Translations under genes and position numbers: made by a program
Shown here: one piece after another, positions 3,329 through 62,426 of the stretch
Position numbering within the stretch: position 1 is the stretch's first letter
How the letters are laid out: each line of letters opens with the position of its first letter
Assembly: GCA_036867785.1 (NCBI GenBank)
Contig: CP145411.1
Location: 1,178,001 to 1,242,000 of the forward strand
From: Plasmodiophora brassicae
Lineage: Eukaryota
Length of the DNA stretch: 64,000 nucleotides
Direction of reading: 5' to 3'
The notes under the pieces: model-generated
The model's input: the letters and a program-made list of their open reading frames with translations, nothing else
Told to the model about the DNA's origin: nothing
Database searches by the model: none

Positions 3329-5715
3329 ATGACGACGATGGCGCGCACGCCTGGCTGGACTGTGTTCGTCGTGACTGCGATTGTCCTGGTGGCCTCCGTT
3401 TCGGCGCCTGGCAGTCCGAATCAGACGTCGGCTGCGTTGGTGAAAACCTCCACTGGTGTGAGGAAATCGGCGACAGTTCACCGGAAGCATACCTCGGTGG
3501 TACTCAGACCGTTGAGACCGACGACAAGTCATGGAGCGTCTAGGCACGTCTTGACAAACTACATGACGGCAAAGCGCACTTCGACGAATCTTAGAGCGCT
3601 TAGACGCGCATCGACAGGACATCGGACGTCTAAACGAACGTCGCATAAGCATGCAATGACGTCTAAGCGAACGTCGCATAAGCATGCAATGACGTCTAAA
3701 CGAACGTCGCATAAGCATGCAATGACGTCTAAACGAACGTCGCATAAGCATGCAATGACGTCTAAACCCACGCAGACCGGCCATGGAGCGTCGAAACGTT
3801 CGGCAACAGTGCGCGGAACATCCAAACGCTCGCCGACAGCGCGTGGGACATCTAAACCCTCGTCGGCAAAGCACAGACCCTCGAGATCCTCTTCGGCAGC
3901 TGCACATCGTGTGGTCGAGCCACCGCCAGTCGCCTACACAAACCGACCATTCCGGCGACCTGCTACCACGTTCAACGCGGCTGGCGCGCAGGCTGGTGCT
4001 GGCGCGCAGGCTGGTGCTGGCGCGCAGGCTGGTGCTGGCATACCAACAACAACGCGAGCACCACTGGATACGACTGGCGGTACGCAGGTGCAGTGTTCGC
4101 CTGGCCACGTCCCAGACACGACGACGAAGGCCTTTTGCGTTGAGTGTCCCCAGGGACGAATTGCGCATGCTGGAGACCTGACTTGCACATCATGCCCGGC
4201 GGACGCCTACACAGACCGGCCTGGCTCTTCGTCGTGTTTGGTATGGCCTTCGAAAGGGTTGACGAAGGCACCGACGTCGGTCACGCAGGGCGTCGTGATC
4301 GCAACCGCATCAACAACGGCTGCCCAGACAGCCATGGTCCAGTTTCCTTGGTCCAGCGTCGTCTATGGCAGTACGATGCAATCATCGTCTACAGGAGCGG
4401 GATGGCTCCCCATCGACTATATGCAGAATCTGCTGTTAATCGGTTTGGTTGACGTGAAGCTCCCTGACGTCATGCGATCCTCCATGTGGGCAACATCGTT
4501 GATGTCTGGGTTGCCCCAAGGGTTGCATTTTCTGGACCGTATCATCGAACGCGTTCGGTGTGCTTGGGGGGCGGTGGACGCGACCGTGGATTCGACGACG
4601 CCGCGACCGTTCCTGGACGTATTGGATCAGATCGGCATCCAGCCCCGCAATCTGTTCATCGTCACCATTGTCTTGACGTTGATGGCAAACATCGCTGTCG
4701 TAATCGTATCGCAGTTGGCGAACCTTGCGCTGGTGCCGCGATGGTCGACGCGGTCGACGATTCGCCAGTGGGAAATTCGTGTCCATCTTCGCATCTTGAT
4801 GGCCATGTTCCAGACAGTCCTACTGGGATGCGCGTTCCAGGTTCGGCGTATCGTCCATTGGACCACATACCTCTACGCTGATGTTTAACGTATCTTCCAG
4901 ATTGGAGCGGTGCGCTTCGACGCGCACCTGGTCACGAGCCTGGCGATAGTCTTTGGGATAACCACCGCGTTCATTGGCAATTTCGCCCTGGTTGCGTTCC
5001 TGCACCGGCATAAACCCCGGTTGCAGACTCGCGAATTCCAGGCGAAATATGGCCCATTCTACGACGACTACAAGCGCGAATGTTGGTATTTTCTAACAGT
5101 GAAACTGGCCTCGAAAGCGATCGGTGCGGCCGTGGTCGGGTTCGTCCGCGACTCGTTCGCGCAGGTTCTAGTCCTGTTCGCTGTCAATCTGTCGTATGCG
5201 GTGGTCTTCTCAAGGCGCAAACCGATGGTGTCAAGGTAAATTGGATCTGCGACGCAGCCCATACCGACCTGCTGACGTGATTACGTGCAGCGTCCAAAAC
5301 CGAATCGCATCGATTATCAACTGGGCCCAGACAGTCAATGTTCTCATTCTGTTCGCGTTCCTGACATTCTCGAACCTGTCTGCGACTTCACTCGTCATTC
5401 TGTCAGAGGTAAAGGAGCGCTCTCCGCGTTGCTGCCAGCAACAGCACATCATATGTGTCGCTACTTTGTACGGTAGGTCGTATTGTTCCTGCACGGCTCC
5501 ATCGTTGGACTGTTCGCTATGTCCCGTGTCATCTACGTCATCATCAGCATCTGGGCCATGGTGCAGCAGGCTTGTTCGAAGCTACCAGAAGGTACGTCGT
5601 GCTTCGGATCACTCCAAGATTTATCACAATAGTCGTGGCCGCTCATTCAGGTTCATCGCAAGCCGAAAAACTACACGATGTGGAAGAGATGGAGATGGAG
5701 CTGCACGAGATGTGA
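3329..5715 (+). CDS. Signal peptide + basic Thr/Ser/His repeat stalk + Cys-rich (GCC2/GCC3, TNFR-like) module + multi-TM TRP-like (Flc/Pkd2-type) membrane domain; multi-exon
   Basis: Hydrophobic N-terminus; CxxCPxG...CxxCPxxxY Cys module; IDYMQ.L.LIG...V.LP and YGPFYDDYK..CWYF motifs typical of the TRP-like TM family. Joined from ORFs 3329-4888, 4910-5239 and parts of 5196-5732. Confidence 0.7.
3625..3767 (+). repeat. Coding tandem repeat, 33-bp unit, 4 copies plus a partial (TSKRTSHKHAM)
   Basis: GACGTCTAAACGAACGTCGCATAAGCATGCAAT at 3625, 3658 (one mismatch), 3691 and 3724; partial copy at 3757. Confidence 0.95.
3980..4039 (+). repeat. Coding tandem repeat, 18-bp unit, 3 copies plus a partial (AGAQAG)
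   Basis: GCTGGCGCGCAGGCTGGT repeated three times. Confidence 0.93.
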
Positions 5716-15617: not shown

Positions 15618-17172
15618 TTACTTGTGGAGGATCACGTTCGCGCCTGCCACCTCATTAGTGTTGGGGGTCTTCCTGGCCGGTCGGGATTCCAGGCTCGGTT
15701 TGAACATGGTGACGCGAAAGGCGCTGTCGAGGGCACGCCCGGTGTAGGCCATGCCCCAGGAGGCGATCCAGCCCCACGATGGCTGCCAGGTGACCTGAGG
15801 GGCGAGTCCCAATATGGCTGTCCCAGCACAGAACATGAGCGTCGACAAAGACAGGCCCAGCATGCCGCGGGTCAACCGCCCCAACAGTCTATCAACGCTG
15901 GGTTCGGCTCTGCGAACCGTGTCCGCAACCCCATCTTGGATACGGTTGGCGGTTCGGTAGTATCGAACCAGAATCCAGAGCACCGAGGAGCTGATTGCCA
16001 ACTGACAGACGAACAGCACCGACGACCCGACTACAACAAACGCAGGTGCGAAGTAGTACGATGCGAAGCACACGCTCATGGCCGTATCCATCGCTATGGG
16101 TATAGCACATAGTGCCGCGGTTAACAGGTGCCGGTCGCCGCGTATGACGCGGAGCGTTAGGGACTGTTCGGCGGACGGGACAATGAAGCTGAGCTTGCTG
16201 GCCCAGACCGCTGCGGACAGCACTGAGGCGGCGAACCCCCATCCGCCTAGCAATGACGTGAAATAGTTCTGAACTGGCGCTGGCAGGTTCGCCGTGCTTT
16301 GGTACCCACCAACTGCCAGAACGATGCCAGATACCGTCGATGTCGTCACCTCAATCAACAGGACCGCGTGTGCCGAATCGAATTTGCTCCATCCGAACTT
16401 CAGACGCCGACGAACCGTACGCTTGGCGTCAACGGTGCAATCGCAGAACTTCTCATTCAGGATGATGACGTGTCCGAGGAGGAAGGCGCCCGCAGTGATG
16501 CCGGACGCCAGCAGCACGACGCAGGGGATGATCCGGATGAACAGCTGGTATGGCCACGATGAAAACAACGGTCCCCAGACGTTGCTGTCGGGGTATACAG
16601 TGACGTTCACTGGTGTCCCTTGGCTAACCATCAGCTGGTAGACGTCCGGGGCGGGGCGTATCACGAGGAACGGGACTCCGAGTTTACGCGTACGGGCACC
16701 GAACGTCCCGTCATGCCAGTAGATCGTGTTGGTGGGTATCTGCTCCAGGTTTGGCCCTGCGCGGTCGCCGCCGGTCAATGTTTCCATTCCCTCATACCGT
16801 ACACGGATGAACGGGCCAACCGCTCTTACACAGATATGCCATAGCACCGGTTGCCACCATGTTCAGGTAAGCCGCCTCCATGGAGCAGTGGACGGCGTAG
16901 AACGCGTCCGCCGTGGCCATCACGACTTTTCCAGTGGCATTCAACGAAAGGAACGGGGCGCATAAATCGCCGTCAGCGACCACGATCGGGCCTGTAACTG
17001 GAACGTTGCCATCCCCCGACTGCGGCCCGGCGAAGGCCGACGCAGTCGGCGAATAGACCGACGCACCATGAAGCGGCCCGCTGGTTGCCGACGGGAACGT
17101 CACCATCCCGTGAACGCCGAGAAGGGCGACCGCACACGGAAGCAGTGCCCTCGGCAGCCGGCCTTGCGGCAT
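15618..17172 (-). CDS. Signal peptide + PA-like ectodomain + 7TM receptor-like protein (paralog A), one intron
   Basis: Signal MPQGRLPRALLPCAVALLGVHG; VTGPIVVADGDLC...GKVVM...CS.E....MVATGAMAYL resembles the protease-associated domain; seven hydrophobic segments in ORF 15618-16847. Confidence 0.75.
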
Positions 17173-38358: not shown

Positions 38359-39952
38359 TCATGAGACGGTTACAACGGATTGTCGCGGCGGTTCGACTTT
38401 GAGGGTTCGGGGGGCTTGTGACGTAATCGAGGCGTTAGCAGTTGGCCTTCTAGGCGTTAGCATGATGACACGAAAGATACTGGACATCGATCTGCCAAAG
38501 GCGTACAGCGACCAGGCGAAGGGCCAGCCAGTCGGCGAGTAGAACTGGTCCCCCAGCAACGGGATCAGGGCAAGTGCAACGACGGAGCAGAGCAGGGCAC
38601 CTCCTAGCCCGATCGCACAGTGCGACAGCCGGGCCAGGACGGCGTCGAGTGCCGCCCTGGAGTTCGACGTCGACCCGCGTACCTTCGACCTGATACCGGA
38701 CGCCTTGATCTTGAACAGTACGGCGCTCCTGACTAGGATGATCCCGTACACCAGCTCGGTGATGGCGAAGCATGCCCCGTTGATCGTATCGAACCCTGGG
38801 TATTTCAGGTCGAAGTGTGTCGTGTAGAGAACGCTAACGGAAGTGTCCAGGGTGAGCAGGGCGACGCAGAGGACGACCGTGAACGCGGGACGATCGCCAC
38901 GAAGTAGCCTGGTGACCTTGGACCAGTTCGCCGACGGGTCGATCGCATCGAGCTGGCGGAGCCACATGGCAGATGACAGGCAGGTGACGGCGAACCCGGC
39001 ACCCGACAGGTTCGTCACGAAGAAATCGATAGCGGGCCCCGGTAGGTTCGAGGTCGAATACCACCCACCGACAGCGTAGACGATGGCCAGCGTGGCCGAT
39101 ACGACGGCATCCAGGGCCAGCGCGGCGTGCTGGTACCCTATGCGTCGCCAGAGAGCGCCGGTGAACCTGAAACCGTGCAGCCTAGCCACGTCGGGGTCCT
39201 GCATCTTGATTCGAACGTGCTGGAAGAGGTGCCACGCTGCCAGGCAGGCTGCGACCGTGAAGGTCGCCGCTGGCACCCATCGCAGCGCGACTTGGTACAC
39301 CCATGATGTGTACAAGGCGCCCCAGACGTTCACGTCCGGGCTAGCGGACACGCTGATGTTCGATAGGCGCCCGACCGCGCTGTCGTCGAGACGAACGTAC
39401 AGGTACGGCATCGTGTGAGGGCGGCGCATCAGCAGGCCGTCTGGGTCATCTCGGAAGTTCATGGCCAGGCTGGGGGTCTCGGTGCGGGTGACCTCTACAA
39501 GCCGTCAGGTCAGTCGACAGCGTCGGACGCGGTCAACTCGCGTTTCGGCTACCGATGATGGCAGCGGCGTGCTTGTCGTTGAAGTTCCAGTACTGCGTTT
39601 CAAACGAGCACGCGCTCGCATAGAAAAGGACAACACGCCCGGACACCACCGAGGAATCGACGGCGGCAGGCTGGCAGGCATCCCCAAGGAATACCAGCGC
39701 CGGACCACGAACGGTGACGTTAGTCGGTGGCTGAGGGCCAATGAACCGGGTCCTGGGGCAACTGTACAGCGACTGGCCCGCCAGTGGCCCCTCAAGAACC
39801 GTCAGTCCGGCCAAGGCAGTATGGTGCACCAAGCAAGCTGGGCAGGTGTCACTTCAGAGGTCGCCATACCGTTCATGTAGTCACGACAAACACGAACCGA
39901 TTGCCAGGACGCTTAGACATCGTCCGCCCTCCCGAGGTGCATGGCCAGGCAT
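38359..39952 (-). CDS. Signal peptide + PA-like ectodomain + 7TM receptor-like protein (paralog B), 2 introns
   Basis: Spliced signal MPGHAPREGGRCLSVLAI|ACLVHHTALAG; GPL.G.S.YS, F.GPQ, GDACQ...SGRVV...CSFE; PDVNVWGALYTSWVYQ, AVGGWYSTSNLP and seven TM segments, all aligning with 15618-17172. Confidence 0.75.
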
Positions 39953-40533: not shown

Positions 40534-43500
40534 ATGTCGTTGTACCTCGAGTGCCGCGTTGAGTCGCTGTCGGATTGCTCGGCGCCGCACCAGGACACGC
40601 GATGGAGCGCCCCCGGCGACCGACGCGCCCTGGCCGTCCTGCGGTCGCACGGAGAAGTCGCCATTGTGGACGACGAGGTATCGGAATGCCTAGCCGCCCA
40701 GCGCCTGTTGACGACGGTACTCAGGGCAACTCGTTCGGTACGCACCCGTCGATTGTGCCCGATGACAGCGATGCGTGCCGCATTGCCTGGCACCCAGCGC
40801 AGCCGGTACTCGCCATCGGATGGAACAATGGTGCGACGCCGAGCCCGCCGCCCGTTGTGTCGGCGACGGGACGCTGACCACGATGCGGTGGTGGTGGTGC
40901 AGGTGCGCTGTCGCTCTGGACCGAGCAGTCTCAGGGGCACGGTGACCTGCTGAAAGCGTTCCACCATACGCCCATCACGCTGCTGGCCTGGGCGCCGCGT
41001 GGCGACCGCCTGGTCAGCGCCGAGACGAGCGGGGCCGTCTCCGTGCACGCGTACCACGACGGGGCCCTGCGCCACGTCAGCGCGTACGCCGCCGATTCGC
41101 CCGTGACGCATGGCGCGTTCCTGCCGGCGCGTTCCGAGTCGACCACCTTCCTGCTGGGCACCGGCGCCGGGTCCCTGTACGTCGCCGACGACACGGGCGC
41201 CTTCGCGCGCATCGGCTCCATCGGCAGCGCCGTCAGCTCCGTGTTCGTCGCGCCCGTCGACCAGTACGTCGTCGTCGTGTCCGTCCAGGCCGTCATGTTC
41301 GTCTATCAGGTACGGCGGGCCGGCGGGCGCGTGCGCACCGGCAGGGCGGTGGCGTGAACGCGACGTGCGAACAGGTGGGCGCCGACGGGAAGCTGTCGCA
41401 GAGGAAGAAGGTGAAACTGTCGGTGCGGGGCGACGGTGCCGACCTCCGCTGCACCTGGGACGGGTACGGCCTGGTGATCGGCGCCAACAACGAGGCCAAC
41501 GTCCGCCTCTGGTCGATCGTCACCGACGAAAGCTACGTCCTGCCGCTATCCGGTCATTGCCGTCGTCGTCGTCTGGTGCCTCCCCCTCGTTCGTGACTGG
41601 CATTGCGCGCAGACCCTCGCCACATGGCACGTGGCGACGATACGGTCGTGGCGGTGGCGTTCAGCAACGCCGGCCGCGTCCTGGTCGGTGGCACCTCCAT
41701 GGGCCGCGTGGTCATGTGGCGTTACTGTCGTCGGAAGCCGTCGTCGGAGGGGTCCCGGTCGGAATCCGACTGGACCGTGCTGCCGCCGGTGAACGCCGGC
41801 CTGGACTGCCCGGTCGTCTCCATCAGCGCCGGCACGACGCCCGGCCTGTTCGCCATCGTCTATCGCACCGGCATCAGCATCCTGACCGACACCGTCCTGC
41901 ACTGTCGCCGCGCGTTCGCCCTGACGGTCACGCAGGTGGCCGCCGACAAGCTCATCGTGCAGTCGGCGAACGGGCGCGCTCGACGCCTAACGTCGAGCAT
42001 CCGCGTCAAAGGTCGGGCGAATGCTGCGAATCGACGCGTGCGCGCGTGTGTGTGATGGGCGCTCAGGGGTGGCGGTCGGCGACGGCGTCGTCGTCGTCTG
42101 GAACGGGTCGAAGGTCGAGGTCAACGAGGTCGGCGAGCAGATCAAGTTCGCCGGGGCGTTCAGCTGCCGCGCCCGCGACGCCGCCGTCCAGGCGCAGACG
42201 ATCTTCGTCGCCGTCGACTGCCGCATCGACGCCTGCAACCTGCAGGGCACCGTCAAGAAGGCGTTCTCCTTCTCGGAATCGGAAGGTGCGTGCGCGCGCG
42301 CGCACCCGCACCCGCACCCGCCTGACGGATACGCAGGCAACCCGATCGTGGTCGACGTCGCCGGCGACTACCTGGCGGCTGCGTCCGACCGAGGGACGCT
42401 GAAGATGTGGGAGGTCGGGCGTCGCGAGCCACGCGCCGTGGTTCCCGGGCGCCAGCTGCCCGGGTCGGTCGGGTCGGTGACGCGGTGCCGCGTGAATCGC
42501 ACGGGCACGCACATCGCCATCCTGAGCGCGTCCACGGCCGACCCTGCGGTGGGGCCTCGGCCCGACAGCAGGCTCGTCGTGTACGACGTTGACCTGGACC
42601 GGTTCGACGAGTACGATTTCGCTGTCAAAGGCGCCCTGCCGTCGTCGTTGCTCTGGGACGACTACGACCCGCGCCTCCTCGTTGTCGTGGTGCACCCGGA
42701 CGCGCCGGCCAGCGGCGGCGAACGCGAAGGCGCGACGGGCGGGGCGCTCGTCTACACGCTGTTCGTCACGACGGAACATGGCATCCGTTTCCAGGATCGG
42801 TTCCCGATCGGCGACGACGTCCTGATTGGCAGCGAGACGCCCTTCACGTACTACATTCAGGGGCAGACCAACGCGTACCGACGTGCCTCGCCGCCGCGTC
42901 GTCTGCTGGGATCTGACTGACCGGGACGCGGCAGGCCGGGCGGCGCGGCCGGCATGCCCAGGATCGAGAAGCGCGTCATGAGGGATTTCGTCGGCCTGGA
43001 GACCGTCGACGAGGCCACGCGCCGCGACCTGGTCCAGTTCAGTTTCCAGATGGCCATCGGCAACATGGACGAGGTGCGTTTGCGGTTGAGCGCACGCCCC
43101 CCGCCTGGATGCGGGCCTGACGCGCGCGCGCTCTGCGTTTCGGCAGGCGTACAGCGTCGTGCAGAACATCGAGAGCCCGTCGATCTGGCGCAACATGGCC
43201 AAGATGTGTGTCATCACGCGCCGCCTCGACGTGGCCAGCATCTGCCTGGGCAACATGGGGTTCGCCGTCGGCGCCAAGGCGCTGCGGGAAGCGACGGCCA
43301 GGTACCCGGAGGCACAGGTCCGGTCCCCAGCGAACCGTCGCCTGTTTCACCTGTAACGAGACGACGTTGTGCAGGCCCGGCTGGCGTCCATGGCCATTGA
43401 ACTGGGCATGACCGACGAGGTACGCGACGCCACGTGGCGTACACACACACACACGCGCGTCCAGGGGGTTGATCTGGGACCGTGTCGACGACAGGCCGAG

Positions 43501-45748
43501 GCGCTGTACCGCGAGTGTGGGCGCTACGACCTGCTCGTGGCCCTGCAGCAGGCGGCCGGCCGATGGGATGCGGCGCTGGCGACCTGTGAGGCCCACTACC
43601 GGATCCACCTGAAACCGCTCAAGTTGGTTGCGCCCCACTCGCACGTGGCGTGCGCCGCCCTGATGCGCGCTCGCCGCCCCCGCCCTGCATAGGTACGCCC
43701 ACGCCAAGTACCTGGAGAACCGGGGCCAGATCGCCAAGGCGATCGCCGAGTACGAGGCGTGCGACGCGCACCGCCTGGAGGTGCCGCGCATGCTGCTGGC
43801 GGCCGGGCTGGTCACCGACCTGGAGAAGTACATCGACAAGGCCAACGACCCGACGCTGCTGGTCTGGCTCGGGCAGTACAACGAAGGGCGCCGCATGTTC
43901 GACGCCGCTCTGGCGTACTACAGCCGAGCCGGCGACCACGTGTCGTGCGTTCGCATGCACTGCCTGCAGGTGCGCCCCTGCGCTGTCGCCCCTGCCGAAC
44001 GTCAACGCTGACGATGGTCGGCCTGCAGGGCAACCTGGAGAGGGCGCGCGCGATCTGCAACGAGACCGACGACCTTGCGGCCTGCTATCATCTGGGGAGG
44101 CACCTCGAGCAGGACGGCATGTTTGGCGAGGCGGTTATGATGTTCACGCGCGCCAAGCGGTACAACCATGCCCTGCGGCTCGCCAAGGAGCAGGCGCAGG
44201 TCAAGGTTGGTCGAACGCGGGGAGCGTCCTCGTGTGTGTGTGCGCGCGTACCGATCGCTGATGTTGGTGCTGCTGCGGCGGGGGGCAGGAGGTGTATTCG
44301 TTGGCGATGCAGAGCCCAGCGGACCTGCAGATCGAAGCCGCCGAGTACCTCGAGTCGCAGGGCGTCTACGACAAGGCGATCCTGCTATACCAGAAGGGGG
44401 GCAACCAGGCCCGCGCTCTCAACCTGTGCTTCAAGGTTAGTCGTCACGGTTTGCTGATCTTGCGCCCGGTGACTGAAATGGGGGCGGCACGGCGCGGCAC
44501 ACACACAGACGAACCAGTTCGACTGCCTGAGCGCGCTGACAGCCGACATGGGCCCGTCGACGCCTCCCGACCTGATCGCCAGGTGCGCGTCGTTCTTCCT
44601 CAGCAACCAGCAGTACGAGAAGGCGGCCCAGCTCTACATCACGGGCCGACGGTACGCGGACGCCCTCGCCGTCTGTATCGACCATCGCCTGGCCATCTCG
44701 GATGAAATGGCCGAAGCGCTGACGCCCCCGAAAGCGTCGTCGACCGCCGCCGCCGCCGCTGACGACAACGACGACGACGCGGCGGCGGCCGGCAACGACA
44801 CCGCGGGTGTATCCCGGACGTCGCTGCTTCGGAAGCTGGGCAAGTACCTGGCCTCGACGGGCTCCTTCCACATGGCGACGAAGAAGTTCACACAGGTACG
44901 TGCAGGGTCGCGCGTTGTGGTGCGCGTTGTTGACGGGCGGCGGCGCGCGTCCACGCAGGCGGGCGACAAGCTGTCGGCGATGAAGTGCCTGATCAAGTCG
45001 AACGACACGTCCAAGATCATCTACTATGCGACGATGACGAAGCGGCGGGAGATCTACATGCTGGCCGCCAACTACCTGCAGAACGTCGACTGGCACGCCG
45101 ACCCGGAGATCACCAAGACCATCATCGCGTTCTACACGAAGGCGAACGCGTTCGACTCGCTGGCCACCTTCTACGACTCGTGCGCCCAGGTCGAAATCGA
45201 CGACTACCGCGACTACGAGAAGGTACGGGGGTCGGCGAGGGCCGGCGACGACCATCGTGTCGTAACTCGTCGCGTCAGGCGCTGTCGGCGCTGCACGAGT
45301 GCCTGGCCTGCCTGCAGAGGTGCGCCGGCGATACCGGCGACGTGCAGAGGCGGGTGCACCTCGTGCAGCTGTTCGTCCAAGCCAGGTCGCTCATGGGCCA
45401 GGGGCAGCAAGCGGACGCCCTCCAGCTGTGCCAGGGCCTGCTCCAGCAGGACGACATCGAGGTAGGCACCCGTCGTGCTCGTTCACCGGGGCCGGCGTCG
45501 TCGCTGATCCGGATCGGGCGGCGCAGGACGGCGTACGCGAGGGCGACGTGTTCGCGCTGATGATCGAGTACCTGTACGGGGCGGGCGACCCGGCGCAGGC
45601 GTCCGCCCTGCTGCAACGCATGCTGCAGAGGAAGCTGGACCCGCGCCCCTACATCAAACCGGACACGCTCAAGGGCATCGGGTTCGACAACGACGCCGAG
45701 CCGGCCGCCGCCGACGACAGCGACCTCGGCGAGGAGGTCGGCGACTAA
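40534..45748 (+). CDS. IFT140: Intraflagellar transport protein 140 (WD40 + TPR), many introns
   Basis: AWHPAQPVLAIGW, MRDFVGLE, IWRNMAKMCVITRRLDVASICLGNM, RIHLK, EVPRML, AACYHLGR, ATKKFTQAGDKLSAMKCLIKSNDT, AANYLQ, FYDSCAQVEIDDYRDYEKAL. Confidence 0.96.
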
Positions 45749-45948
45749 CGACGACCGGGGGCACCGTATGCAGCAATACATTGCCGGGTTCGCAACGACC
45801 ACGTCGCGCCGGGCCCGGGCGGAACCTTCCTGGGCAGGTCGTCGTCGTACACGACGCGTGAGTCACGTGCCGAGACATGGGCATCCGACGGGTCGGCACG
45901 TAGCCCCATCGTGCCCAAATGTCCAATCCCATGCCGTTAGACACGCTC

Positions 45949-50860: not shown

Positions 50861-52219
50861 CTATGGTTCGGCGAGCAGCGGTTTGGTGAGTTCCGAGGAC
50901 GAACCAGGCGGCAATATGGGTGCCGCTAGAACCGCTAGAGCGACCCCGAGTATGCAGGTGGCGAATATGGATGCACCCATGGACATGCCCACATACTGGA
51001 GCAGGGCGCCGCCCACCACGGGCCCGATGATCTCGCCCAGGCTATACGACGCGATGACGACGCCAGAAACGACGTCCGTCGCGCCAGCTCCCAGGTGCTT
51101 CGTCAGCTCCACCATCTGCGGCACGACAGGTACGAGTACCATGGCGGCTCCCGCCGACAGGAACACGAGCGACCCGCATCGTAACGACAGCGCTCTGGGG
51201 ATGAACCCAATCGGGGCGGGCCCAAGCACACACAACGACGCGGCAACGAGCGACAATCCGAAGACGATCAGACCCCGCGTATTGGCAGGCGTTGACACCC
51301 ATCCGATGGCGGGTGCCGCCAGAGCGTAGATCAACGAGATCATGACGAACAGAAGGCCGACTGAGGACGGGGACACGTTCTGCGACGCGAGTTCCGGTTG
51401 CAGGGCCAGGTCCAGGAACGAGAACACGGCCATGCCGACGACGGACGCGGCGAAGATTAGCGCGACCCCTGGCGTGGTCATGATCTGGTACACGGTCACC
51501 TGCGACCGCTTCCGAGGCGTTTTGTCGCGCCTTGGAATAAGGCACATCAGCGGAACAATCGTTATCAGGGTCAGGGCGCCAACGACGAAGAACGGCAACC
51601 GGAAGCCGCCGTACTCGAACAGGAACCCGCCGAGGAGCGGGCCGAGCATGTACCCGACAGATACAGATGCCGCAAGGAGCCCGGCCACCTTGCCGACGTC
51701 GCACCCGGTGAACATCGACGCTATAAGTGCTTCCGACCCAGTCGACGAGGCGGCACTACCGATGCCCTGTACGAGACGAACGGCGAGGCCGGCCACGACA
51801 AACGGCGTCCCTTTGAAATCGTCGATGAGTGCGAAGGCGGCCGTGGAGATGCCCGAGGCGATAACGCCGGTCAGGATGAGCGCTTTGGGACCCAGGATCG
51901 GGATCAACATTCCGAACGTGGGGGCGGTTACCAGGACAGCAAACGGGAGCACGGACAGGACGGCACCGGCATCCACGAGCGAGACGTCGTGGCGGACGGC
52001 CTCCCCAGGGAAGAACGGGCCGACCAGCGACAGCGGCAGGGCCAGGACCAGGCTCAACATGCAGAGGACGACGCATGTGGCCGTATATCGGGGGTGCGTC
52101 GTCGGAGCCACGTCCGTCCCCTTTGGCAAGTTACAGGTGACGGGCTGATGGGCGTATGTGTCGTCAGTGTCAGAAGGCATGTGTGTCGGTGATGGCCCAT
52201 CCACGGGCCCAGCCGGCAT
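50861..52219 (-). CDS. MFS transporter, SLC18B1-like (tandem copy 1), intronless
   Basis: About 12 TM segments; GPFFPGEA, RLVQGIGSA, GPLLGGFLFEYGGFRLPF, SLGEIIGPVVGG. Confidence 0.92.
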   Translation of the reverse strand: MPAGPVDGPSPTHMPSDTDDTYAHQPVTCNLPKGTDVAPTTHPRYTATCVVLCMLSLVLALPLSLVGPFFPGEAVRHDVSLVDAGAVLSVLPFAVLVTAPTFGMLIPILGPKALILTGVIASGISTAAFALIDDFKGTPFVVAGLAVRLVQGIGSAASSTGSEALIASMFTGCDVGKVAGLLAASVSVGYMLGPLLGGFLFEYGGFRLPFFVVGALTLITIVPLMCLIPRRDKTPRKRSQVTVYQIMTTPGVALIFAASVVGMAVFSFLDLALQPELASQNVSPSSVGLLFVMISLIYALAAPAIGWVSTPANTRGLIVFGLSLVAASLCVLGPAPIGFIPRALSLRCGSLVFLSAGAAMVLVPVVPQMVELTKHLGAGATDVVSGVVIASYSLGEIIGPVVGGALLQYVGMSMGASIFATCILGVALAVLAAPILPPGSSSELTKPLLAEP

Positions 52220-52619
52220 GACCTACCGGATAACCTATAGCGATCCTCCTCACACTGGCTGATAGGGCACGACGTCAGTACTGTAGGTCCCTTGAGTAGA
52301 CCGACCCTATACACTGTACCTACCATCAGAATCATAACGGGAGTCTGTCTGACAGCCCCTCCCCATAGTGCTTCCTGGCGAAGGGCATCTGCAATCCTGA
52401 ATGTGCAGGTTGCAGATGGCTCAGCGGTCGGCATTCAACAGGGTTCTGTCGACTCAGTCTGGACGTGATGCGACTGATACGAGAATGTCAACCATGTGAA
52501 TCGCGCTAAACCAGAGATGCCTGAAAAGAAAGATGACGGATGCATTTCGTCCAAAGGCCGATCGGACTGATTCCCGCCATGCCGAACACTATACGACGCG
52601 ACTGGATTCGAAGATCCTG

Positions 52620-52785
52620 GAGGTTCCAAGAAGCGCTGTTCTACCTGCCCGATGACGACGTGGTGGACGTCGTCCTGAAGTGGTGGCGCCTGCATTCTTC
52701 ACGTAATCGTCTGGTGCTGCACGCGCTCTGGCTCGGTTTACGAGCAATGCCTATGCGATGAGAGGCGTTGAGTAAGCTGATCGGC
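52620..52785 (+). mobile_element. Possible degraded hAT transposase C-terminal dimerization-domain fragment
   Basis: FYLPDDDVVDVVLKWWRLHSSR...LRAMP.R*EALS resembles hAT YL...D.L.WW....S.YP.L...LAIP...ERAFS, with an in-frame stop. No TIRs identified. Confidence 0.3.
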
Positions 52786-52928
52786 TGACGCCGACGTTGA
52801 ACCCGCGAACACGAGAAGGTGAAACGTCGACCTACTTGGCGTTCCGCCCGATTTGCATTTGCAATAGGTTACGCAAGGCGAGCTCCAGCAGATTGGATAT
52901 TGTATTGTGGAATATATCAGACAATGGA

Positions 52929-54263
52929 CTAGGGTTCTGCAACAGGATACTTGCCGGCGAGCAGAGGTTTGGCGAGTTCCGAGGACGAACCGGGCGGCAA
53001 CATGGGTGCCGCTAGAATGGCTAGTGCGATGCCGAGTATGCAGGTGGCGAATATGGATGCACCCAGGGACATGCCCACGTACTGGAGCAGGGCGCCGCCC
53101 ACGACGGGACCGATGATCTCCCCCAGGCTATACGACGCGATGACGACGCCAGAAACGACGTCCGTCGCGCCAGCGCCCAGGTGCTTTGTCAGCTCCACCA
53201 TCTGCGGCACGACTGGTACGAGTACCATGGCGGCTCCCGCCGACAGGAACACGAGCGACCCGCATCGTAACGACAACGCTCTGGGGATGAACCCAACCGG
53301 GGCGGGCCCAAGCACACACAACGACGCGGCAACGAGCGACAATCCGAAGACGATCAGACCCCGCGTATTGGCTGGCGTTGACACCCATCCGATGGCGGGT
53401 GCCGCCAGAGCGTAGATGAACGAGATCATGACGAACAGAAGGCCGACCGAGGACGGGGATACGTTCTGCGACGCGAGTTCCGGTTGCAGGGCCAGATCCA
53501 GGAACGAGAACACGGTCATGCCGACGACGGACGCGGCGAAGATCAGCGCGACCCCTGGCGTGGTCATGATCTGGTACACGGTCACCTGCGACCGCTTCCG
53601 AAGCGCCTTGTCGCGCCTTGGAATGAGCCACATCAGCGGGATAACGGTCGTCAGGGTCAGGGCGCCAACGACGAAGAACGGCAACTGGAAGCCACCGTAC
53701 TCGAACAGGAACCCGCCGAGGAACGGCCCGAACATGAATCCGATAGATCCGCACACCTCGAGGAACCCGGCCATCTTGCCGATGCTGCACCCGGTGAACA
53801 TCGACGTCATCAGCGCGTCCGACCCGGTCGACGAGGCGGCGCTACCGATGCCCTGTATGATACGAATCGCGAAGCCGGACACGACGAACGGCGTCCCGTT
53901 GAAATCGTCGATGAGTGCGAAGGCGGCCGTGGAGATGCCCGTGACGACACTGCCAGTCAGGATGAGCGCTTTGGGGCCCAGGATCGGGATCAGCATGCCG
54001 AACATGGGGGCGGTGACCAGGACGGCGAACGGGAACACGGACAGGATGGCACCGGCGGCCACGAGCGAAACGTCGTGGCGGACGGCCTCCCCGGGGAAGA
54101 ACGGGCCGACCAGCGACAGCGGCAGGGCCAGGACCAGGCTCAACATGCAGAGGACGACGACGGCAGTGATTCGGGGCCGCGTCGTCGGACCCGCGGACGC
54201 CTGCTTCGGTACGGTATCGCTGACGGGCTGATAGGCGCACGTGGCGTTCGTGTCAGACGGCAT
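52929..54263 (-). CDS. MFS transporter, SLC18B1-like (tandem copy 2), intronless
   Basis: Close paralog of 50861-52219. Start taken at MPSDTNAT; the ORF extends further upstream. Confidence 0.92.
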   Translation of the reverse strand: MPSDTNATCAYQPVSDTVPKQASAGPTTRPRITAVVVLCMLSLVLALPLSLVGPFFPGEAVRHDVSLVAAGAILSVFPFAVLVTAPMFGMLIPILGPKALILTGSVVTGISTAAFALIDDFNGTPFVVSGFAIRIIQGIGSAASSTGSDALMTSMFTGCSIGKMAGFLEVCGSIGFMFGPFLGGFLFEYGGFQLPFFVVGALTLTTVIPLMWLIPRRDKALRKRSQVTVYQIMTTPGVALIFAASVVGMTVFSFLDLALQPELASQNVSPSSVGLLFVMISFIYALAAPAIGWVSTPANTRGLIVFGLSLVAASLCVLGPAPVGFIPRALSLRCGSLVFLSAGAAMVLVPVVPQMVELTKHLGAGATDVVSGVVIASYSLGEIIGPVVGGALLQYVGMSLGASIFATCILGIALAILAAPMLPPGSSSELAKPLLAGKYPVAEP

Positions 54264-55065
54264 GGCTGTCGGTGTTGTTCCATCCACGGGCCCAGCGGGC
54301 GAATTGCAAGTGACGGCAGCGCGGTGGTCGGCGCAGATCGCGTGGGCGGCGTGAACGCGACGGCAGTGGCCTGGCGCAAAACTGCGCGACCCACCCCGCA
54401 CTGGCAGTAACGACATCAGCAATCTGCGCGCCCCCTCCCCTCGGCCCGCCCCGCCGCCTTTTTGTGGGACACACAGCCGCCTGCGCCGAGTGCAATCCAG
54501 CTGCTGCGTCCGCCCTTCCCAGACTGTCTGCTGCTCCCTCGGGCTGATCGTCCCGGATGCCCTGTGCGCCGGCGGGTGGCGACGGCAGCAGTCGACCAGA
54601 CGGCTCGTGTGCGCTGGTACAGTAGGCGGTGCTGCGCCTCACAGCGCGCCGATGACACTCCTCGTGGAAAAACGCACTTCCACTTGAAGTGTTCTGGCTG
54701 GTAGACTCGCCACCTGTTCTGCCCGTCAACCGGAACAACGTACAGAACGTGACGTCACGCGGTCTCTCGGACGATATGCACTGCGCCAATGGCTCCGGAT
54801 GCGTTTCATGGCCTAGGTAGGCTCCGCCGTTGCGCCGTCTGAGCCGATCGACGTTGGATCGAACCATGCTGATCCACCTGCTGCTATGCTTGGGATACAA
54901 TATGTCAGGACGGGTTCGTGGAATACGGCCCGCTGGCTGGGCAGGGTCCTTTGGCTGACTGTTGACACGATCTAGTGCACATTAGCTATATGTCGTAGTA
55001 GAACCGTACGGTACCCGCAGACCAATCTGCTATTCACCGTTAGGCTAGCATTGTCGTCGCACGGG

Positions 55066-56418
55066 ATGGACGATGCCTACAGCTGGGTGATGTGGACGCT
55101 GCTCTGCGTCCAGGTGTTGCTCTACCTGCCCGCCATGATCCTGTTCCTGGCCCGCATGGACCGGCACCCTATCCGGCCGCGTCTGCCCGTCTTGACGGCC
55201 GTGCTTATCACCTGCTTCGTCATCGACGACATCGTGCAGGGCCTGTGCGTATTGGATTCCGCGGCCCTGCCCGCTGGCCTGTTCGCCTGGGTGAGCGCCC
55301 CCGCCGTCACCGCCCTGTCATCATGTCTGTTCGCGATCGGCAGCGACTGCCTCCTGCTGCGTTACGCGCACGTCTTCTGCCGGTACCGGCTGACGCAGGC
55401 GCGCATCCTGGCGGCCGCCACCGGCCCGGAATCGGGCACCGTCAGCTCCGTTGACCGGTGGCTGCTCAGGCACCCACACGCCGGGTCGCCCCACACGATC
55501 TCGGTAAGCGTGGCGGCCCTGGCCGTCTTCCACGCCGGCATCGCGCTTGTGTACCTGCTCCATCCGTCCGCCTGGCTGACGGCCTGGCAGACGGCCTGGT
55601 CCGCGATGGTGTTCGCCGGCATGGTCGTCTTCGCGTACGCCCTACGGCCGTGCCACGACGGGTTCAGCATCCGATGGGAACTGATCAACGTGACGCGCGT
55701 CTCCTTCGTCGCCGTCGTTGCCGACATCGTGTTCGACGGCGACGGCGTCCCGATCACGTTGCTGGTCCGCTGGGTGGCGATCCAGTCCCTGATCGTCCTA
55801 ACGCTCATCATGCCGCTGGTCTGGTCGGTCCGCCAGGTGGGCCCCGCCCGGGTCACAATGTCAGAGATGCTGGAGACGACCGTGTGTCGGGCCGCCTTCC
55901 GCCTGTTCCTGGCGTCCGAATTCTGCATCGAGAACCTGCTGTTCCTTGACGAGGTCGACGCGTTCCACAGCCGATACTATCGGCGGCACAAGCTCGTGCA
56001 CTTCTCGCCGTCGCTGAGCGCCACGCCCGACAGCGACTCGGTGCTGTCACTGTCGGCCGACAAGCCCATGCCGGACGAGGACAGGTTGCAGGTGGACGCG
56101 CAGCTCATCTACGACAAGTTCATCAAGCGGAACGCGCCGTTCGAGGTGACGCTGTCCGGCAGGTTACGCGACAGATACGCGATGACGTTCGAGGACAGCA
56201 GCAGTGCCGAACCGCAACATCGATTCAAGGTGAGCGACGTTGTGCCCGTCGGGACAGGCATGTCGACGCCACAAGGGTCGCTCCACATGATCTTGGTCGT
56301 CGACAGCAACGTGTTCCGGGAGGCGGCCCGCGAGGTGACGTCCCTGCTGGAGAACGGCCCCTGGGTCCACTTCCAGCAGACGCCGATCGCGCAGGAGCTC
56401 CTGCATATGGGATGTTAG
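55066..56418 (+). CDS. 7TM-RGS protein (membrane-tethered regulator of G-protein signalling), intronless
   Basis: N-terminal hydrophobic helices with PIRPRLP and DGFSIRWEL; RGS box FRLFLASEFCIENLLFL...AQLIYDKFIKRNAPFEVTLS...VFREAAREV..LLE...W..F. Confidence 0.9.
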   Translation: MDDAYSWVMWTLLCVQVLLYLPAMILFLARMDRHPIRPRLPVLTAVLITCFVIDDIVQGLCVLDSAALPAGLFAWVSAPAVTALSSCLFAIGSDCLLLRYAHVFCRYRLTQARILAAATGPESGTVSSVDRWLLRHPHAGSPHTISVSVAALAVFHAGIALVYLLHPSAWLTAWQTAWSAMVFAGMVVFAYALRPCHDGFSIRWELINVTRVSFVAVVADIVFDGDGVPITLLVRWVAIQSLIVLTLIMPLVWSVRQVGPARVTMSEMLETTVCRAAFRLFLASEFCIENLLFLDEVDAFHSRYYRRHKLVHFSPSLSATPDSDSVLSLSADKPMPDEDRLQVDAQLIYDKFIKRNAPFEVTLSGRLRDRYAMTFEDSSSAEPQHRFKVSDVVPVGTGMSTPQGSLHMILVVDSNVFREAAREVTSLLENGPWVHFQQTPIAQELLHMGC

Positions 56419-57614: not shown

Positions 57615-58110
57615 ATGGCGTCGTCAGCGTCTGCAACGTTGCAGGTCAAGCAGAGTCCCTGCTGCCGTTAGGCCGGGAGGAGGGATTGCCCCCTCATAAT
57701 ACTCCCTCTGTCCGGGAATGATTGTCCGGTTTCAGTTGGTCAGAAGGCAACAGTGATGAAACCGCTGATTCGTTGCGGGGGACGCAAATTGAGGGCGGTA
57801 GGTAGCGGAGATGGCGAGCATTGACCAGGTCGCAACAAGCGTTTCTGGGCAACCACCTTACGACCGAACAGTTATACGAGAGTCTGGACACTGATGCGTT
57901 CGAGAACGATCTGCCCGAGATTGAGATGGACCTTGATGACGGCAACACCGATGAAGATGCGCTCTGTGGCGTCCCTGCTCCCGGAATGAAGGTCGGAAGC
58001 CAACTAGAAAGGGTGCAGGCGCCGGCGCCCCCATTGTCGGTGCAGGGCGCTCATCTGGCCCCCGAAACGTGCCACGTACGGCGACGGTCGACCGTATATT
58101 CTAAGGTTCA
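57615..58110 (+). CDS. Possible small acidic hypothetical gene (multi-exon); end unresolved
   Basis: Phase-consistent GT-AG splicing gives MASSASATLQVKQSPCC|LGQKATVMKPLIRCGGRKLRA|LYESLDTDAFENDLPEIEMDLDDG... Confidence 0.35.
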
Positions 58111-61100
58111 TTGTGTACGTCGACGCGTCAGCTGGGGCCGCAGCGCGTTCCACAGGTCCCTGAGGTGGGTGCCGGTGGCCATGGACCCCCGGATCCGGGT
58201 GATCAGTCGGGGCAGGGCGCCCGGGTCGCCACCGGCCGCCGTCCGCCTCCTGACGACGGTCGGGCTGGCGTTGCTGTTGCTGTCCGTATCGCTGGCGCTC
58301 GTGTCCGACCCGCTCATCGACTGGGCGAACAGCGGCCCGGCCGTCGTCGACGCCGGCGACGTCGAGCGGCGGGGTGACGCGGCGGGCAGCAGGTTGATGC
58401 CCTTGCTGGACGGCTTCATCGTGTTCATCAGCGCCACGTACGACATCCACTGGCGGGTGGCGTCCCGGTGCGATGTGGCCAGCAGCAAGCGGATCGGGTC
58501 GATGTGCAACGCCCCGTCCCTGTCGTAGTAGGAGGCGGTGCCCAGGCGCAGCACCGACACGAGGCCGGCGCCAGTCGGCGTCTCCACCGGTTCGACGTCG
58601 ACGTCGCGGGTCGGCATGCGGATCCACAGGGCCAGCCCCTGCCAGGACCCGTCCGACCGGACCACGTTGTGGAACACCTCGATGCTCATCGTGTCGACGT
58701 CGACCCAAACCGATTTCCAGCGCTGCACCGTGCTGCCCAGCAGCAGGCGGGTACGCCTCGACGACGACGACGACGAGGACGACGACGACGAAGCCATCAT
58801 CGACATGGGCCCGGTGAACAGGACGACGCGGTCGTGGCTGGTCAGGTGCTGCCTGGTGATCATCGTGGCGATGTACTTCACCTGGCGGTGGAGGATGCGC
58901 GACCGGACGAACTCCATCAGGAAGACGGTCGAGAAGGTCACGACGGCGGCGGTGACGTCGTCGTGGCGCAGGTCGGGCAGCGACCGCCGATGCGAACGGG
59001 CCGGGGCGGCGACCAGGGCCGGGGCGTGCCGCGGCCGCAGGATGTCGTTCGTGAACAGGCCCTGGAACTGGCGGGCCAGCTGCGTCAGGTGCTCGTCGAT
59101 CGGGTACCCGGTGCGGATCATGTCGTAGGTGAACGTCGGGCCGAACACGGACGCCACCTTCAGGATCATGCGCTGGCAGTGCGTCAGCGAGTCGACCAGC
59201 TCGCCCAGCGTGTTCTGCAACGTGAACGGCACCGGGAACGCCGGCCTGCGACGGAACCCGTCCGAGACGACGACCTGGACGGCCGGCGCCTCCTGGGTCG
59301 CGTCGGCCGGCGCGACGACCAGGCGCAGGTCGCCCCGGCGCTGGGCGCTGTAAACCAGCTCGCGGCAGATCATCGGGTTGCCTCGCGACCGCTCCAGGAC
59401 GGCGTCGACGAGCAGGTCGGGCAGGCGCGTGCACCCCAGCAGGGTGCACATCAGGTCGACGAGGACGCCGTCGGCCAGGCGCGACAGCGTCAGCGTCTGT
59501 GTGGCCGCGTGCGTCACGATGGCGTCCAGCGCGCGGCAGGTCGGCGCCTGCATGGCCAGGCAGGTGGGCGAGCGGACGGCCAGGGCGATCAGCAGGCCGG
59601 GTGGGCGCCGGTCCAGCAGGGCCAGGACGGCGCGGCACGACGCGTCTTCCAGGAGGTGGGCGCTGTCCAAGACGATGGCCAGCGGTTCGCAGCGGGTGAC
59701 GCCCACGACCAGGTCGGCGATCGGGTCGACGAGGACGTCGGACCCGGGGCGATGGTCGACGACGAAGGCGATCAGGTCGGGATGGGCGCCGATGTCCTGC
59801 AGGAAGGCGCGACGGTTGGCGTCCGGGTCGTCCTGCGCGTACCGCGCCAGGGACGAGCGACGCACGATCAGGTCGACGAGCGACGTCAGGCACTGGCGCC
59901 AGGCGAACATGGCGTCGCAGGTCGGCAGGCGCAGCGCCCTGCCGCAGACGACCATGATGGGGGCGTCGCAGATCGTCGAGGCGAACAGGTGCGTCTTGCC
60001 GAGGCCCAGGTCGCCCTGGACGACCAGGCATTGCGGGGCGCCCGTCTGCAGCAGGTCGTGGACCGCATGGGCGATCCGCTGGCGCTCCCGGTGCCTGCCC
60101 TGGTTGATCCGCGACACGTCCTGCTCGGCGACGACCGACGACGTCAGCGCCAGGTCGAGGATGCCGCCCGTGCGGTTCGCGTCCAGGTCGTGGACCACGA
60201 TCGGCAGCACGTCCAGGCGCAGGGCGTCGTCGACGACGATCCGCGACCGTAACGACAGGAACGACAGGGACGCCGGCCCGGGCGACTGGCGCTGGACCTG
60301 CGGCAGGCGCGCCGCCTTCTGCTTGGCGTCGCCGACCAGCGTCACGTCGGTACAATCCAGGTAGACCTACAGCGATGGGGGGCCCCCGCGTTAGCGCACG
60401 TCATTGGCCGTGTGCCGACGACGTGTGGAACGGACCGTGTCGCCGTCGTCGAGCGTGACGTGCAGGCCAAAGACGGCGGATCGGGCCGGGTACGTCTGCG
60501 CCGGCATGGTGGTGGGCGACGGCGCCACCGCCGCCCCGGCGCCCAGAGCGGGCGGCAACGTGAGGTGGAACGGCGCCGGCGCCGGCGACGACGACGTGCC
60601 CGGGCTACAGTGCAACGCGTCGCGGTCGCTGACGAACAGGTTCAGGTGCCTGGGGGAGGGGAACACACCCCCTGTCAGCGGTCGGCCTGCACGGTGTGGG
60701 CCGATCGATGCACACCAACGTACTCGAGCGGGGACCGTCGGTCCGGCCAGGCGTGCCCCTGGGCGAACATGGCCGGGACGAACAGGCGCGTCTGCCGGTG
60801 CTTGCCCTTGACGGTGATCGGGTCCAGCGCCCGGAACGAGATCAGCAGGCGGGTGGCGTAGCGCGTGGCGTTGTCGACGACGACGTGCAGGCGGTGGGCG
60901 GCGGCGTACTGCATGAGGCGGGCGGAGATGTTGACGACGTCGCCCAGCACCGAGTACTCGCGGCGCGTGTTGCCGCCCGTGACGCCGCAGAAGGCGTACC
61001 CGGTCGTGACGCCGCAGTTCACGTCGGCCTGTGTGTGTGTGCGTGTGCACACAACGTGTCGCGGTCAGCGCCTCCTGTTCCGCCTGCGCCCACCCAGCGG

Positions 61101-62426
61101 ACGAACCTTCATGGCGGGCAGCGCCCCGCAGAGGCACAGGGCGGCGACGACGCCGCGCAGCGAGTCGTTGGCGTGCGCCGACGGCAGCAGGCCGAAGACG
61201 GCCAGCACGGTCAGGCCCTTGTCGTCGAACAGGAACTTGTTGACGGCGCCGCCATTGTCGAGGACGGCCCGCTGCACCGTCTCCATGACCTGGGGGAGGG
61301 GGCGAACGCGGTCAGGGGCGGGTGCCTCGGTCGCGGATCCGATCCTGCCCGACCCGCTGCAGACGCGCCAGGCCGGTGCCGGTGCCGACGTGCGCCTCGA
61401 CGGCCGGGTCGACGGTGGTGTGCGCGAACAGGACCGTCACCTTGCGGATCTCGGACGCCCAGCGCTCCTCGAGCTCGCCGACGAACGGCAGCACGCCCAG
61501 CGGCACGTACCGCTGGAGCAGGGCGGACAGGTCGGCGGGGCTGTCCACGCCCGCCACGAGCTCGTTGGCGGTCGCCATCGACGAGGCGATACCTCGTTTG
61601 GACAGCGGGTCACGGCACGACCGAAGCTCGACGCCGACGACCGGGCCGCTGGGCGTCGTCGGGCGCGGCCGACCCGTCCGGAAGTGGGGCTCGACCAGGG
61701 CGGCCGCCTGCAGCGACACGACAACCTGCAGAGGCAGGTCAGCGAAACCCTGAAGCGCGCGCCCGGGCGGGCGGATGTCAGGCGGCGTACCTGTCCGGGG
61801 TCGGCCACGTTCTCGCAGGTGAACGCCTGGGCCAGCGGGGACCCGATCGCCAGGTACTCGGTGCGCTGCTCGACGCCGCCGACGTGGACGATGTCGACAT
61901 CGCCGACGCCGATGCCGATCTTGAGCGACAGCTCGTAGAGGTTGGCGGCGCCCGAGTCCTGCAGGGTCAGGCCATGCAGGTGGCGCTGGATGTCCAGCGC
62001 GCACTGGCAGGACCGGCGCGCCAGCACGCCCAGCGTGTCGCCCGTGTCGGGCCAGACGACGATGACGGCGTCGCCGGCGAACTTGAAGACGTCGCCGCCG
62101 TGCCTGGCGACGACCTTGACCAGGATGCCAAAGTACGCCTTGACGATGCGGGCCAGGTCCTCGATGCCGTTATGCGTTTCGCCCAGCTGCTCGCACATGG
62201 CCGTGTACCCGCTGATGTCGGCGAACAGGACCGCCGTCGTCAGCCGGTGACGAGCGGGCAGCGACAGCGGCACCGGGTCCGAGCAGTGCCCGGCCAGGAA
62301 CTGGACGACCACCGACGGGATGTACGAGCACAGGTTGATCAGCGACGCCGACGACAGCGGGACGGGCCCCGGCGCTCGCCTGCTGCTGTCGTCGCGACGA
62401 TACCTGCCGCCGCCGTCGTCTGTCAT
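58108..62426 (-). CDS. Soluble adenylyl cyclase (ADCY10-like): two class III cyclase domains + STAND P-loop NTPase, with putative Ubl/RA insert and C-terminal PH domain
   Basis: C1 VLFADISGYT and GGDVFKFAGDA; C2 VNKFLFDDKG and RREYSVLGDVVNISARLM; Walker A GDLGLGKT; LDSAH; RSRGNP; LKVASVFG. Confidence 0.9.

Follow-up and report, generated by a model that had tools for sequence, protein, structure and literature searches.

PA domains are ligand-binding modules, usually joined to proteases, RING ligases or vacuolar sorting receptors. The single-pass sorting receptor VSR1 carries one that has a two-cysteine pattern and a non-catalytic role, together with a signal peptide and further lumenal domains, and the arginine of its RGxCxF motif binds the carboxylate of peptide C-termini (PMC8740768). 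In the PA-TM-RING ligases ZNRF3, RNF43 and GRAIL, the domain is placed directly ahead of the only membrane helix and the protein also carries a RING; ZNRF3 and RNF43 act on seven-transmembrane (7TM) receptors in trans. To our knowledge, a PA ectodomain occurs in no class of GPCR, and our searches brought up no such case.

Three families share the GPCR fold but lack class A motifs, namely PRRT3/PRRT4 (PF25987), THH1/TOM1/TOM3 (PF06454) and GPR137 (PF27607). PRRT3 and PRRT4 carry six arrestin codes and, according to PMC13581589, recruit arrestin and not G proteins; PRRT4 is listed as GPCR-like in PMC10041065, where the GPCR fold is also ascribed to non-receptors. PMC2530877 reports that TOM1 does not bind GPA1 while the TOM1-like Cand3 and Cand5 do in yeast; ARL8, a small GTPase, co-purifies with TOM1 (PMC3234234). 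GPR137 is lysosomal and is given no domain beyond its 7TM part in PMC12716839. The behaviour of PRRT3/4, TOM1 and GPR137 therefore means that a GPCR fold does not settle G-protein coupling. In Plasmodiophora brassicae, 7tm_3 proteins fused to solute-binding-protein (SBP) domains have been described (PMC4815078), and a GPCR-pathway inhibitor lessened clubroot symptoms according to a passage in the review PMC9180986.

Here we analyse a P. brassicae gene, PBRA_002883 (CEP02916.1; hereafter gene A), which lies on the minus strand at 15618..17172 of a 64,000-nucleotide stretch of contig CP145411.1 (the window) and joins a predicted PA ectodomain and a predicted GPCR-type bundle in one chain. Our preferred reading, to which we give a probability of roughly 0.6, is that its product is a PA-capped, ligand-sensing 7TM receptor from an unnamed and broadly eukaryotic family.

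Gene structure and the PA-type ectodomain

Gene A begins with an ATG at 17172 and its stop codon finishes at 15618, and since this span of 1555 nt equals 1 mod 3, an intron is required. Exon 1 (16830..17172, minus strand) encodes the signal peptide and the first two-thirds of the PA domain, and exon 2 (15618..16756, minus strand) the remaining PA domain, the linker, the 7TM region, the tail and the stop; the two exons are separated by a phase-1 GT-AG intron of 73 nt (16757..16829, minus strand, donor GTAAGA). Splicing was checked in contigs from 4 of 24 listed runs, belonging to four studies. The intron was removed in all four, as 16757-16829 in three runs and as 16757-16820 in one, where an alternative donor at 16820 (minus strand) gives an intron of 64 nt and an exon 1 that reaches 16821; the contigs were otherwise identical to the window. 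Although no run containing gene A is recorded as RNA, the 'RNA' label being a program's guess, the contigs represent transcribed cDNA because the GT-AG joints are spliced out, and in two runs they measure 1.7-1.8 kb and extend little beyond the gene. Gene A is a real, spliced and transcribed P. brassicae gene, and both of its in-frame donors, 9 nt apart, are in use.

The 73-nt intron yields a protein of 493 aa and the 64-nt intron one of 496 aa, which is identical to the annotated sequence (P0008) and which we use for residue numbering; in the cluster of the exon-2 ORF this 496-aa record is titled 'hypothetical protein PBRA_002883 [Plasmodiophora brassicae]'. Donor choice decides whether the GAxA strand ends in L-W-P (73-nt form) or in L-C-K-S-G-P (64-nt form); the closest paralog reads I-W-P at this site, and the annotated form gains a cysteine, C115, outside the conserved Cys pair. 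Isolate, stage or assembly choice could be the cause of the 3:1 split. Two intronless ORFs, one of 389 aa from 16787 and the 409-aa P0003, were rejected as gene models, as their starts fall within the intron or exon 1.

Residues 1-22 (17107..17172, minus strand) are basic, then hydrophobic, and end in V-H-G; judged by eye and by hydropathy, and with low pLDDT at residues 1-20, they form a probable signal peptide, in agreement with an earlier note made from the sequence of this DNA. The ectodomain that follows (residues 23-171; 16596..17106, minus strand, split by the intron) contains sequons at N78 and N168 and all of the PA hallmarks to which that note had drawn attention (GPIVVADGDLC71, GKVV, C96SME and GAMA). 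When residues 22-185 were modelled alone (pLDDT 92) and compared with 48161 chains by VIA-align, every one of the 18 chains at Z>=8 was PA-bearing, while the top non-PA chain reached Z 6.9. The best match was the PA domain of VSR1 (Z 12.2, rmsd 2.8, 138 aa), with zebrafish lysosomal N-glycanase tied (Z 11.7), and the next were ZNRF3, RNF43, PA-aminopeptidases, GRAIL and the transferrin receptor, the three ligases scoring Z 9.5-11.1. Foldseek returned 27 matches at E<=0.001 (best E 4.6e-5), mostly the PA domains of ZNRF3, RNF43 and GRAIL, and the clusters listed in an Atlas structure search were also mostly PA-bearing. The modelled ectodomain of gene A thus has the PA fold that had been claimed for it.

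Sequence profiles see little of this. Pfam PA (PF02225) was not found in gene A, with 0 families for P0008 at E<=0.1 and none for exon 1; it appeared at E<=0.1 in 17 of 87 family members, and among the scores seen only the distant member P0136 passed the cut-off (29.3 vs 23.9 bits). The family profile aligns its GAxA/Cys stretch with the PA domain of keratinase KP1 at E 0.005. A 6-row profile gave a single match in the PDB, 21 residues of designed Kelch-type proteins, which was judged to be chance.

Both cysteines are well conserved (C71 in 63 of 68 rows, C96 in 65 of 69), as are G109, A110 and A112 of the GAxA strand (51-54 of 69 rows), and C71 and C96 would be expected to form a disulfide. 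An RGxCxF-type arginine at position Cys-3, in contrast to VSR1, is present in only 3 of the 60 rows having the cysteine (68 aligned), gene A reading AVHCSM, and VSR-type recognition is therefore not conserved; this result gives no support to the proposal, made in the earlier note, that the protein senses peptides or host cues. By residue count, not superposition, the conserved P125-G/T..Y.HDG loop would fall at switch III of VSR1, which lines the cargo site, the distance being 29 residues both from C96 to P125 and from C98 to T127 in VSR1. The alternative splice donor is located at the start of this loop.

The seven-helix bundle

The PA domain is connected to TM1 by a PD-N-W linker with a short helix (residues 172-184; 16557..16595, minus strand), in which N176 is conserved in 68 of 75 rows and W178 in 64 of 74. 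An AlphaFold2 model of the whole protein, built on an 87-row alignment, reached pLDDT 91.0 and pTM 0.89, values that imply a defined packing of the PA and 7TM parts. The bundle (residues 185-468; 15705..16556, minus strand) is formed in this model by helices 185-224, 245-267, 277/288-309, 327-349, 355-394, 403-435 and 445-468. Hydropathy alone gives six strong membrane segments in addition to the N-terminal signal-like segment, and the seventh helix (445-468), which is amphipathic, comes from the model and from GPCR superpositions covering residues 179-472, in agreement with the seven segments counted previously. The loops hold 8, 0, 4, 0 and 8 K+R residues, which places the N-terminus outside and the C-terminus inside.

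The basic region between TM5 and TM6 that had already been noticed (residues 382-414; 15867..15965, minus strand) comprises 33 aa with 8 K/R and 4 D/E, and in the model it consists mostly of helical extensions of both helices. Overlooked in the earlier note was the TM1-TM2 cytoplasmic loop (residues 212-247; 16368..16475, minus strand), which, with 36 aa and 8 K/R, is its equal in length and basicity. A long basic TM1-TM2 loop is untypical of GPCRs. The cytoplasmic tail (residues 469-496, 28 aa; 15621..15704, minus strand) contains no arrestin-code pattern.

When the full model was compared with the same 48161 chains by VIA-align, MRGPRD came first, superposing over 240 aa (residues 179-472) at Z 19.2 and rmsd 3.6, and the best 50 rows were made up of 49 GPCRs and LYCHOS (Z 15.1), with a similar outcome in a second such search. 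TOM1/GPR137-type structures were absent from the best 50 rows of both searches, which excludes nothing, and Foldseek with the full model gave nothing at E<=0.001, its rows being a mixture of PA domains and GPCRs. Judged from the model, the 7TM part of gene A has a GPCR-type bundle fold. Class A receptors (MRGPRD 9dqj/9dqh, GPR75 9xqn, MRGPRX2, P2Y14, PAR1) share with it the seven-helix, N-out arrangement at Z 17-19.5 and rmsd 3.5-4.2 over about 240-260 residues, and in both TM5 and TM6 are extended on the cytoplasmic side; however, identity to gene A is only 8-11%, and the long TM1-TM2 loop and the PA ectodomain set gene A apart. A scan of gene A for DRY, NPxxY, CWxP and HETx was empty save for a PxxG-like PSWG outside TM6, the model has no helix past 468 that could represent helix 8, and no 7tm Pfam family scored above cut-off, the best being 7tm_7 at E=0.011 in one of 87 members.

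Family range and conservation

A 7-row profile was run against 1.84 billion representatives, with clusters defined at 50% identity, and matched 126 clusters at E<=0.001 and 74 at 1e-10; the PA-7TM layout was kept across these 126, down to about 15-20% identity. Twenty-five clusters were looked up, of which eight were from P. brassicae, one from Spongospora subterranea, one from chytrids (Clydaea vesicula, Lobulomyces angularis), two from EukProt transcriptomes and 13 from other records, and Atlas clusters at 0.94-0.97 belonged mainly to Endomyxa and Zoopagomycota. The family thus occurs well beyond clubroot and was therefore not invented for host sensing; such sensing by the phytomyxid paralogs is possible. 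P. brassicae itself has at least nine members, a lower bound composed of eight named records and paralog B, with most other close matches lying outside the 25 clusters looked up; automatic database names for these proteins read 'hypothetical', 'TRP C-terminal domain' or 'PA domain-containing'. Word-based searches for homologs had low sensitivity, giving 5, 4 and 2 matches among 8000 scored candidates, and in an alignment-pattern scan, a method that reaches close relatives only, none of 75 pattern matches in viral contigs and none of 59 in JGI metagenome contigs was a relative.

A profile of the TM region alone was built from 24 close members. Of 47 further TM regions, 43 outscored every one of 282 decoys (highest 10.4 bits), two of them by a small margin; four membrane proteins that are encoded in the window and are unrelated to the family scored at most 3.2 bits. 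Homology across the family therefore includes the membrane part. Among the members, the conserved positions are G49-P-Q, C71, C96, the GAxA strand, P125, D133, PD-N-W (173-178), R192, E253, G289, W302, D341, P443 and R458, and four of these are charged residues in or adjoining helices (E253 in 69 of 76 rows, D341 in 58 of 70 with a further 11 E, R458 in 45 of 60 and R192 in 65 of 75). CREST intramembrane hydrolases have a conserved His/Asp zinc site; no conserved His set for such a site was found in the family, where only H213, on the cytoplasmic side, is partly conserved (40 of 69 rows). Identity among 11 close full-length members is 58% in the linker, 59% in TM7, 35% in the PA domain and 37% in the 7TM region overall, and as PA identity is not below 7TM identity, nothing points to special diversification of the presumed ligand-binding domain. 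By sequence, gene A matches no characterised family, and protease and RING families are absent from the Pfam matches listed for the 87 members (E<=0.1).

Paralog B (38359..39952, minus strand) has a predicted start and two predicted introns (39838-39897 and 39495-39552) and is 29% identical to gene A across the long exon, which is identical to P0034 and has PBRA_002591 as its nearest relative (41%). Like the intron of gene A, its second predicted intron is in phase 1 and directly follows the GAxA-type strand, and many database matches stop at about profile position 93, as would be expected if an intron is conserved at this point. In a quick tree, from which P0034 was omitted as identical to paralog B, the chytrid members P0055 and P0145, both flagged for biased composition, fall within a 36-row clade that holds every named phytomyxid sequence; we read no gene transfer into this placement. 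Some distant members carry cytoplasmic extensions that look PAS-like (P0069, with PF00989 at E 0.24, below cut-off; P0074, by eye). In one public model, P0014 (SPQ99984.1), histone H3 runs on into the last two-thirds of a PA-7TM member, probably because two neighbouring genes were merged.

Receptor reading and alternatives

Several observations speak for a receptor, namely the spliced transcript, the two-domain model, the predominance of GPCRs among the best structural matches of the whole protein and the exclusively PA-bearing matches of its ectodomain. A gene set of this size in a single genome is typical of receptor repertoires, and we also counted in favour of this reading that linker and TM7 are the most conserved segments, that the layout persists across the 126 clusters, that protease and RING families are absent from the listed matches, and that a GPCR-pathway inhibitor lessened symptoms according to the review cited above. 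Against it stand the missing class A/B motifs, helix 8 and 7tm Pfam match, the scarcity of the VSR-type arginine, the PA domain's lack of special diversification, and the fact that the nearest named families, themselves leads only, include proteins that failed to couple to G proteins. The earlier note had proposed an orphan GPCR-like class and had named three findings that would speak against its proposal: a helix count other than seven, an ectodomain without PA fold, and membership in a characterised non-receptor family. None of the three came true: the seven helices, the PA fold of the ectodomain and the lack of a sequence match to a characterised family all stand, and an orphan GPCR-like class is supported. 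G-protein coupling does not follow from this, as the nearest named 7TM families include non-couplers. Overall, we consider such coupling of the gene A product doubtful.

In the receptor that we favour, the signal peptide would direct the protein into the secretory pathway, and the disulfide-bonded PA domain, which in the predicted structure caps the bundle on its outer (or lumenal) side, may bind a peptide or protein ligand, as suggested by the roles of PA domains in VSR1, ZNRF3/RNF43 and peptidases. Given their conservation, the PD-N-W linker, TM7 and residues R192, E253, D341 and R458 might relay the resulting change through the membrane, where the basic cytoplasmic faces (TM1-2 and TM5-6) would engage an effector; this could be a heterotrimeric G protein or else an arrestin-like adaptor, a kinase or a small GTPase. 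The numerous paralogs, divergent as they are, would recognise different ligands. A wider proposal is more speculative still and, as it stands, rather unlikely to hold in full: an ancient, unrecognised eukaryotic class of PA-capped receptors, related to PRRT3, TOM1 and GPR137, present in rhizarians, chytrids and other protists and expanded in phytomyxids, whose paralogs would detect peptides or proteins outside the cell and act via G proteins. If it were true, the family would provide the first member of the PRRT3/TOM1/GPR137 group having a tractable ligand-binding domain.

The alternative that survives best, although we think it unlikely, is an endomembrane cargo receptor or scaffold, whose PA domain captures lumenal cargo while a TOM1/GPR137-like 7TM part in the vacuole or lysosome membrane recruits small GTPases or adaptors, with no classical signalling. 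It can draw on the ectodomain's closest resemblance to VSR1 and the lysosomal N-glycanase, on the lysosomal location of GPR137 (PMC12716839) and the co-purification of TOM1 with ARL8 (PMC3234234), and on the named Atlas clusters nearest to residues 176-475 by language-model features, which are PRRT3 (0.83), THH1/TOM1 (0.82) and GPR137 (0.81), all below 0.9 and hence leads only. The distant member P0136 has both PF02225 and PF25987 (PRRT3) on record, at a strength that is not given, and its TM region scored 74 bits with a family TM profile from which it had been left out, where no decoy exceeded 8.5. However, the 24-row close-family TM profile gave the same region 12 bits (best decoy 10.4), so that the link to PRRT3 is transitive. 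Gene A itself has no direct sequence match to PF25987, PF06454 or PF27607 in the Pfam copy used, which may lack PF25987 and PF27607, and PF06454 is absent from the 25 families listed out of the 31 that match the 87 members with E<=0.1. The scarcity of the cargo-binding arginine (PMC8740768) also argues against VSR-like sorting, and a large set of paralogs would suit sensing better than housekeeping sorting. As to PRRT3/4, their six arrestin codes (PMC13581589) and long disordered termini (PMC10041065) differ from the short tail of gene A, which has 0 codes. Using the short arrestin pattern as given in PMC13581589 and a guessed long pattern, with no shuffle control, we found at least one code in 30 of 57 member rows, mostly in the long Ser/Thr-rich tails of distant members.

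Improbable, in our estimation, is a ligand-gated adaptor for membrane-protein turnover, the PA domain binding an extracellular regulator as in ZNRF3/RNF43 and the 7TM part with its basic loops recruiting a ubiquitin ligase in trans. The placement of the PA domain directly ahead of the first membrane helix is shared with ZNRF3, RNF43 and GRAIL, whose PA domains form the majority of the Foldseek matches, and the nearest Atlas structure to residues 176-475 (TM 0.70) is from a cluster with RINGv in all members and THH1/TOM1 in 13%. Gene A, however, has seven membrane helices and a 28-residue tail without RING, no RING was seen among the matches listed for the 87 members, and the tails of two distant members (P0056, P0076), which look ubiquitin-like by eye, have no Pfam match to support that appearance. 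Least probable is a transporter, channel or intramembrane enzyme of GPCR-like fold (as SLC51A, LYCHOS or CREST hydrolases), to which the PA domain delivers substrate: the conserved charges of E253, D341, R458 and R192 in or beside helices and the sharing of the fold with non-receptors (PMC10041065; LYCHOS above) would suit it, but the family shows no conserved histidines that could make up a zinc site, H213 being partly conserved on the cytoplasmic side, and the top superpositions are signalling GPCRs.

A ligand-sensing receptor would make gene A one of a known kind, the GPCR-fold 7TM proteins with a ligand-binding ectodomain. The fusion of PA and GPCR-fold 7TM parts apparently represents an undescribed architecture and family, although both folds are known. 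We found no description of it in the literature searched; Bi et al. 2019 (Phytopathol Res 1:12), which is outside that scope, may list gene A as a GPCR. The terms 'PA domain' and 'protease-associated' do not occur in the available main text of PMC4815078 (Rolfe et al. 2016) or in that of PMC12716839, a survey of 18 choanoflagellate GPCR families; nothing on PA-7TM proteins was found in PMC12903343, and PMC9831288 names GPCRs only in a reference. As P. brassicae was already known to fuse varied sensor domains onto 7TM cores, the surprise is reduced: its 7tm_3-SBP proteins likewise place a borrowed ligand-binding domain on a 7TM core, but they combine a recognisable class C 7TM region with bacterial SBP domains and form a distinct family (PMC4815078). 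Sequence tools miss the PA-7TM family, so that it would go uncounted in any GPCR census relying on Pfam 7tm models. Its PA domain, being small and soluble, lends itself to expression and ligand screening, which orphan 7TM proteins that have no ectodomain do not permit.

Further genes of the window deserve mention. An intronless ORF of 450 aa (55066-56418, plus strand) is hydrophobic in its N-terminal half and carries an RGS domain towards the C-terminus (PF00615, E 1.9e-11), making it a candidate 7TM-RGS protein; tried as a relative of the PA-7TM family, it scored 0.9-3.2 bits and is unrelated. The ORF at 3329-4888 (plus strand) starts with a signal-like sequence and contains membrane segments, a stretch rich in Cys and a tandem repeat of basic character (about MTSKRTSHKHA); by eye it resembles a stalked surface receptor, while two tandem, highly similar ORFs at 50861-54416 (minus strand) look like MFS-type transporters. 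Also judged by eye, 58004-62426 (minus strand) presumably holds an adenylate/guanylate-cyclase-like gene with an ATPase-like region, and 41000-45800 (plus strand) contains a WD40/TPR gene that we take to resemble IFT140.
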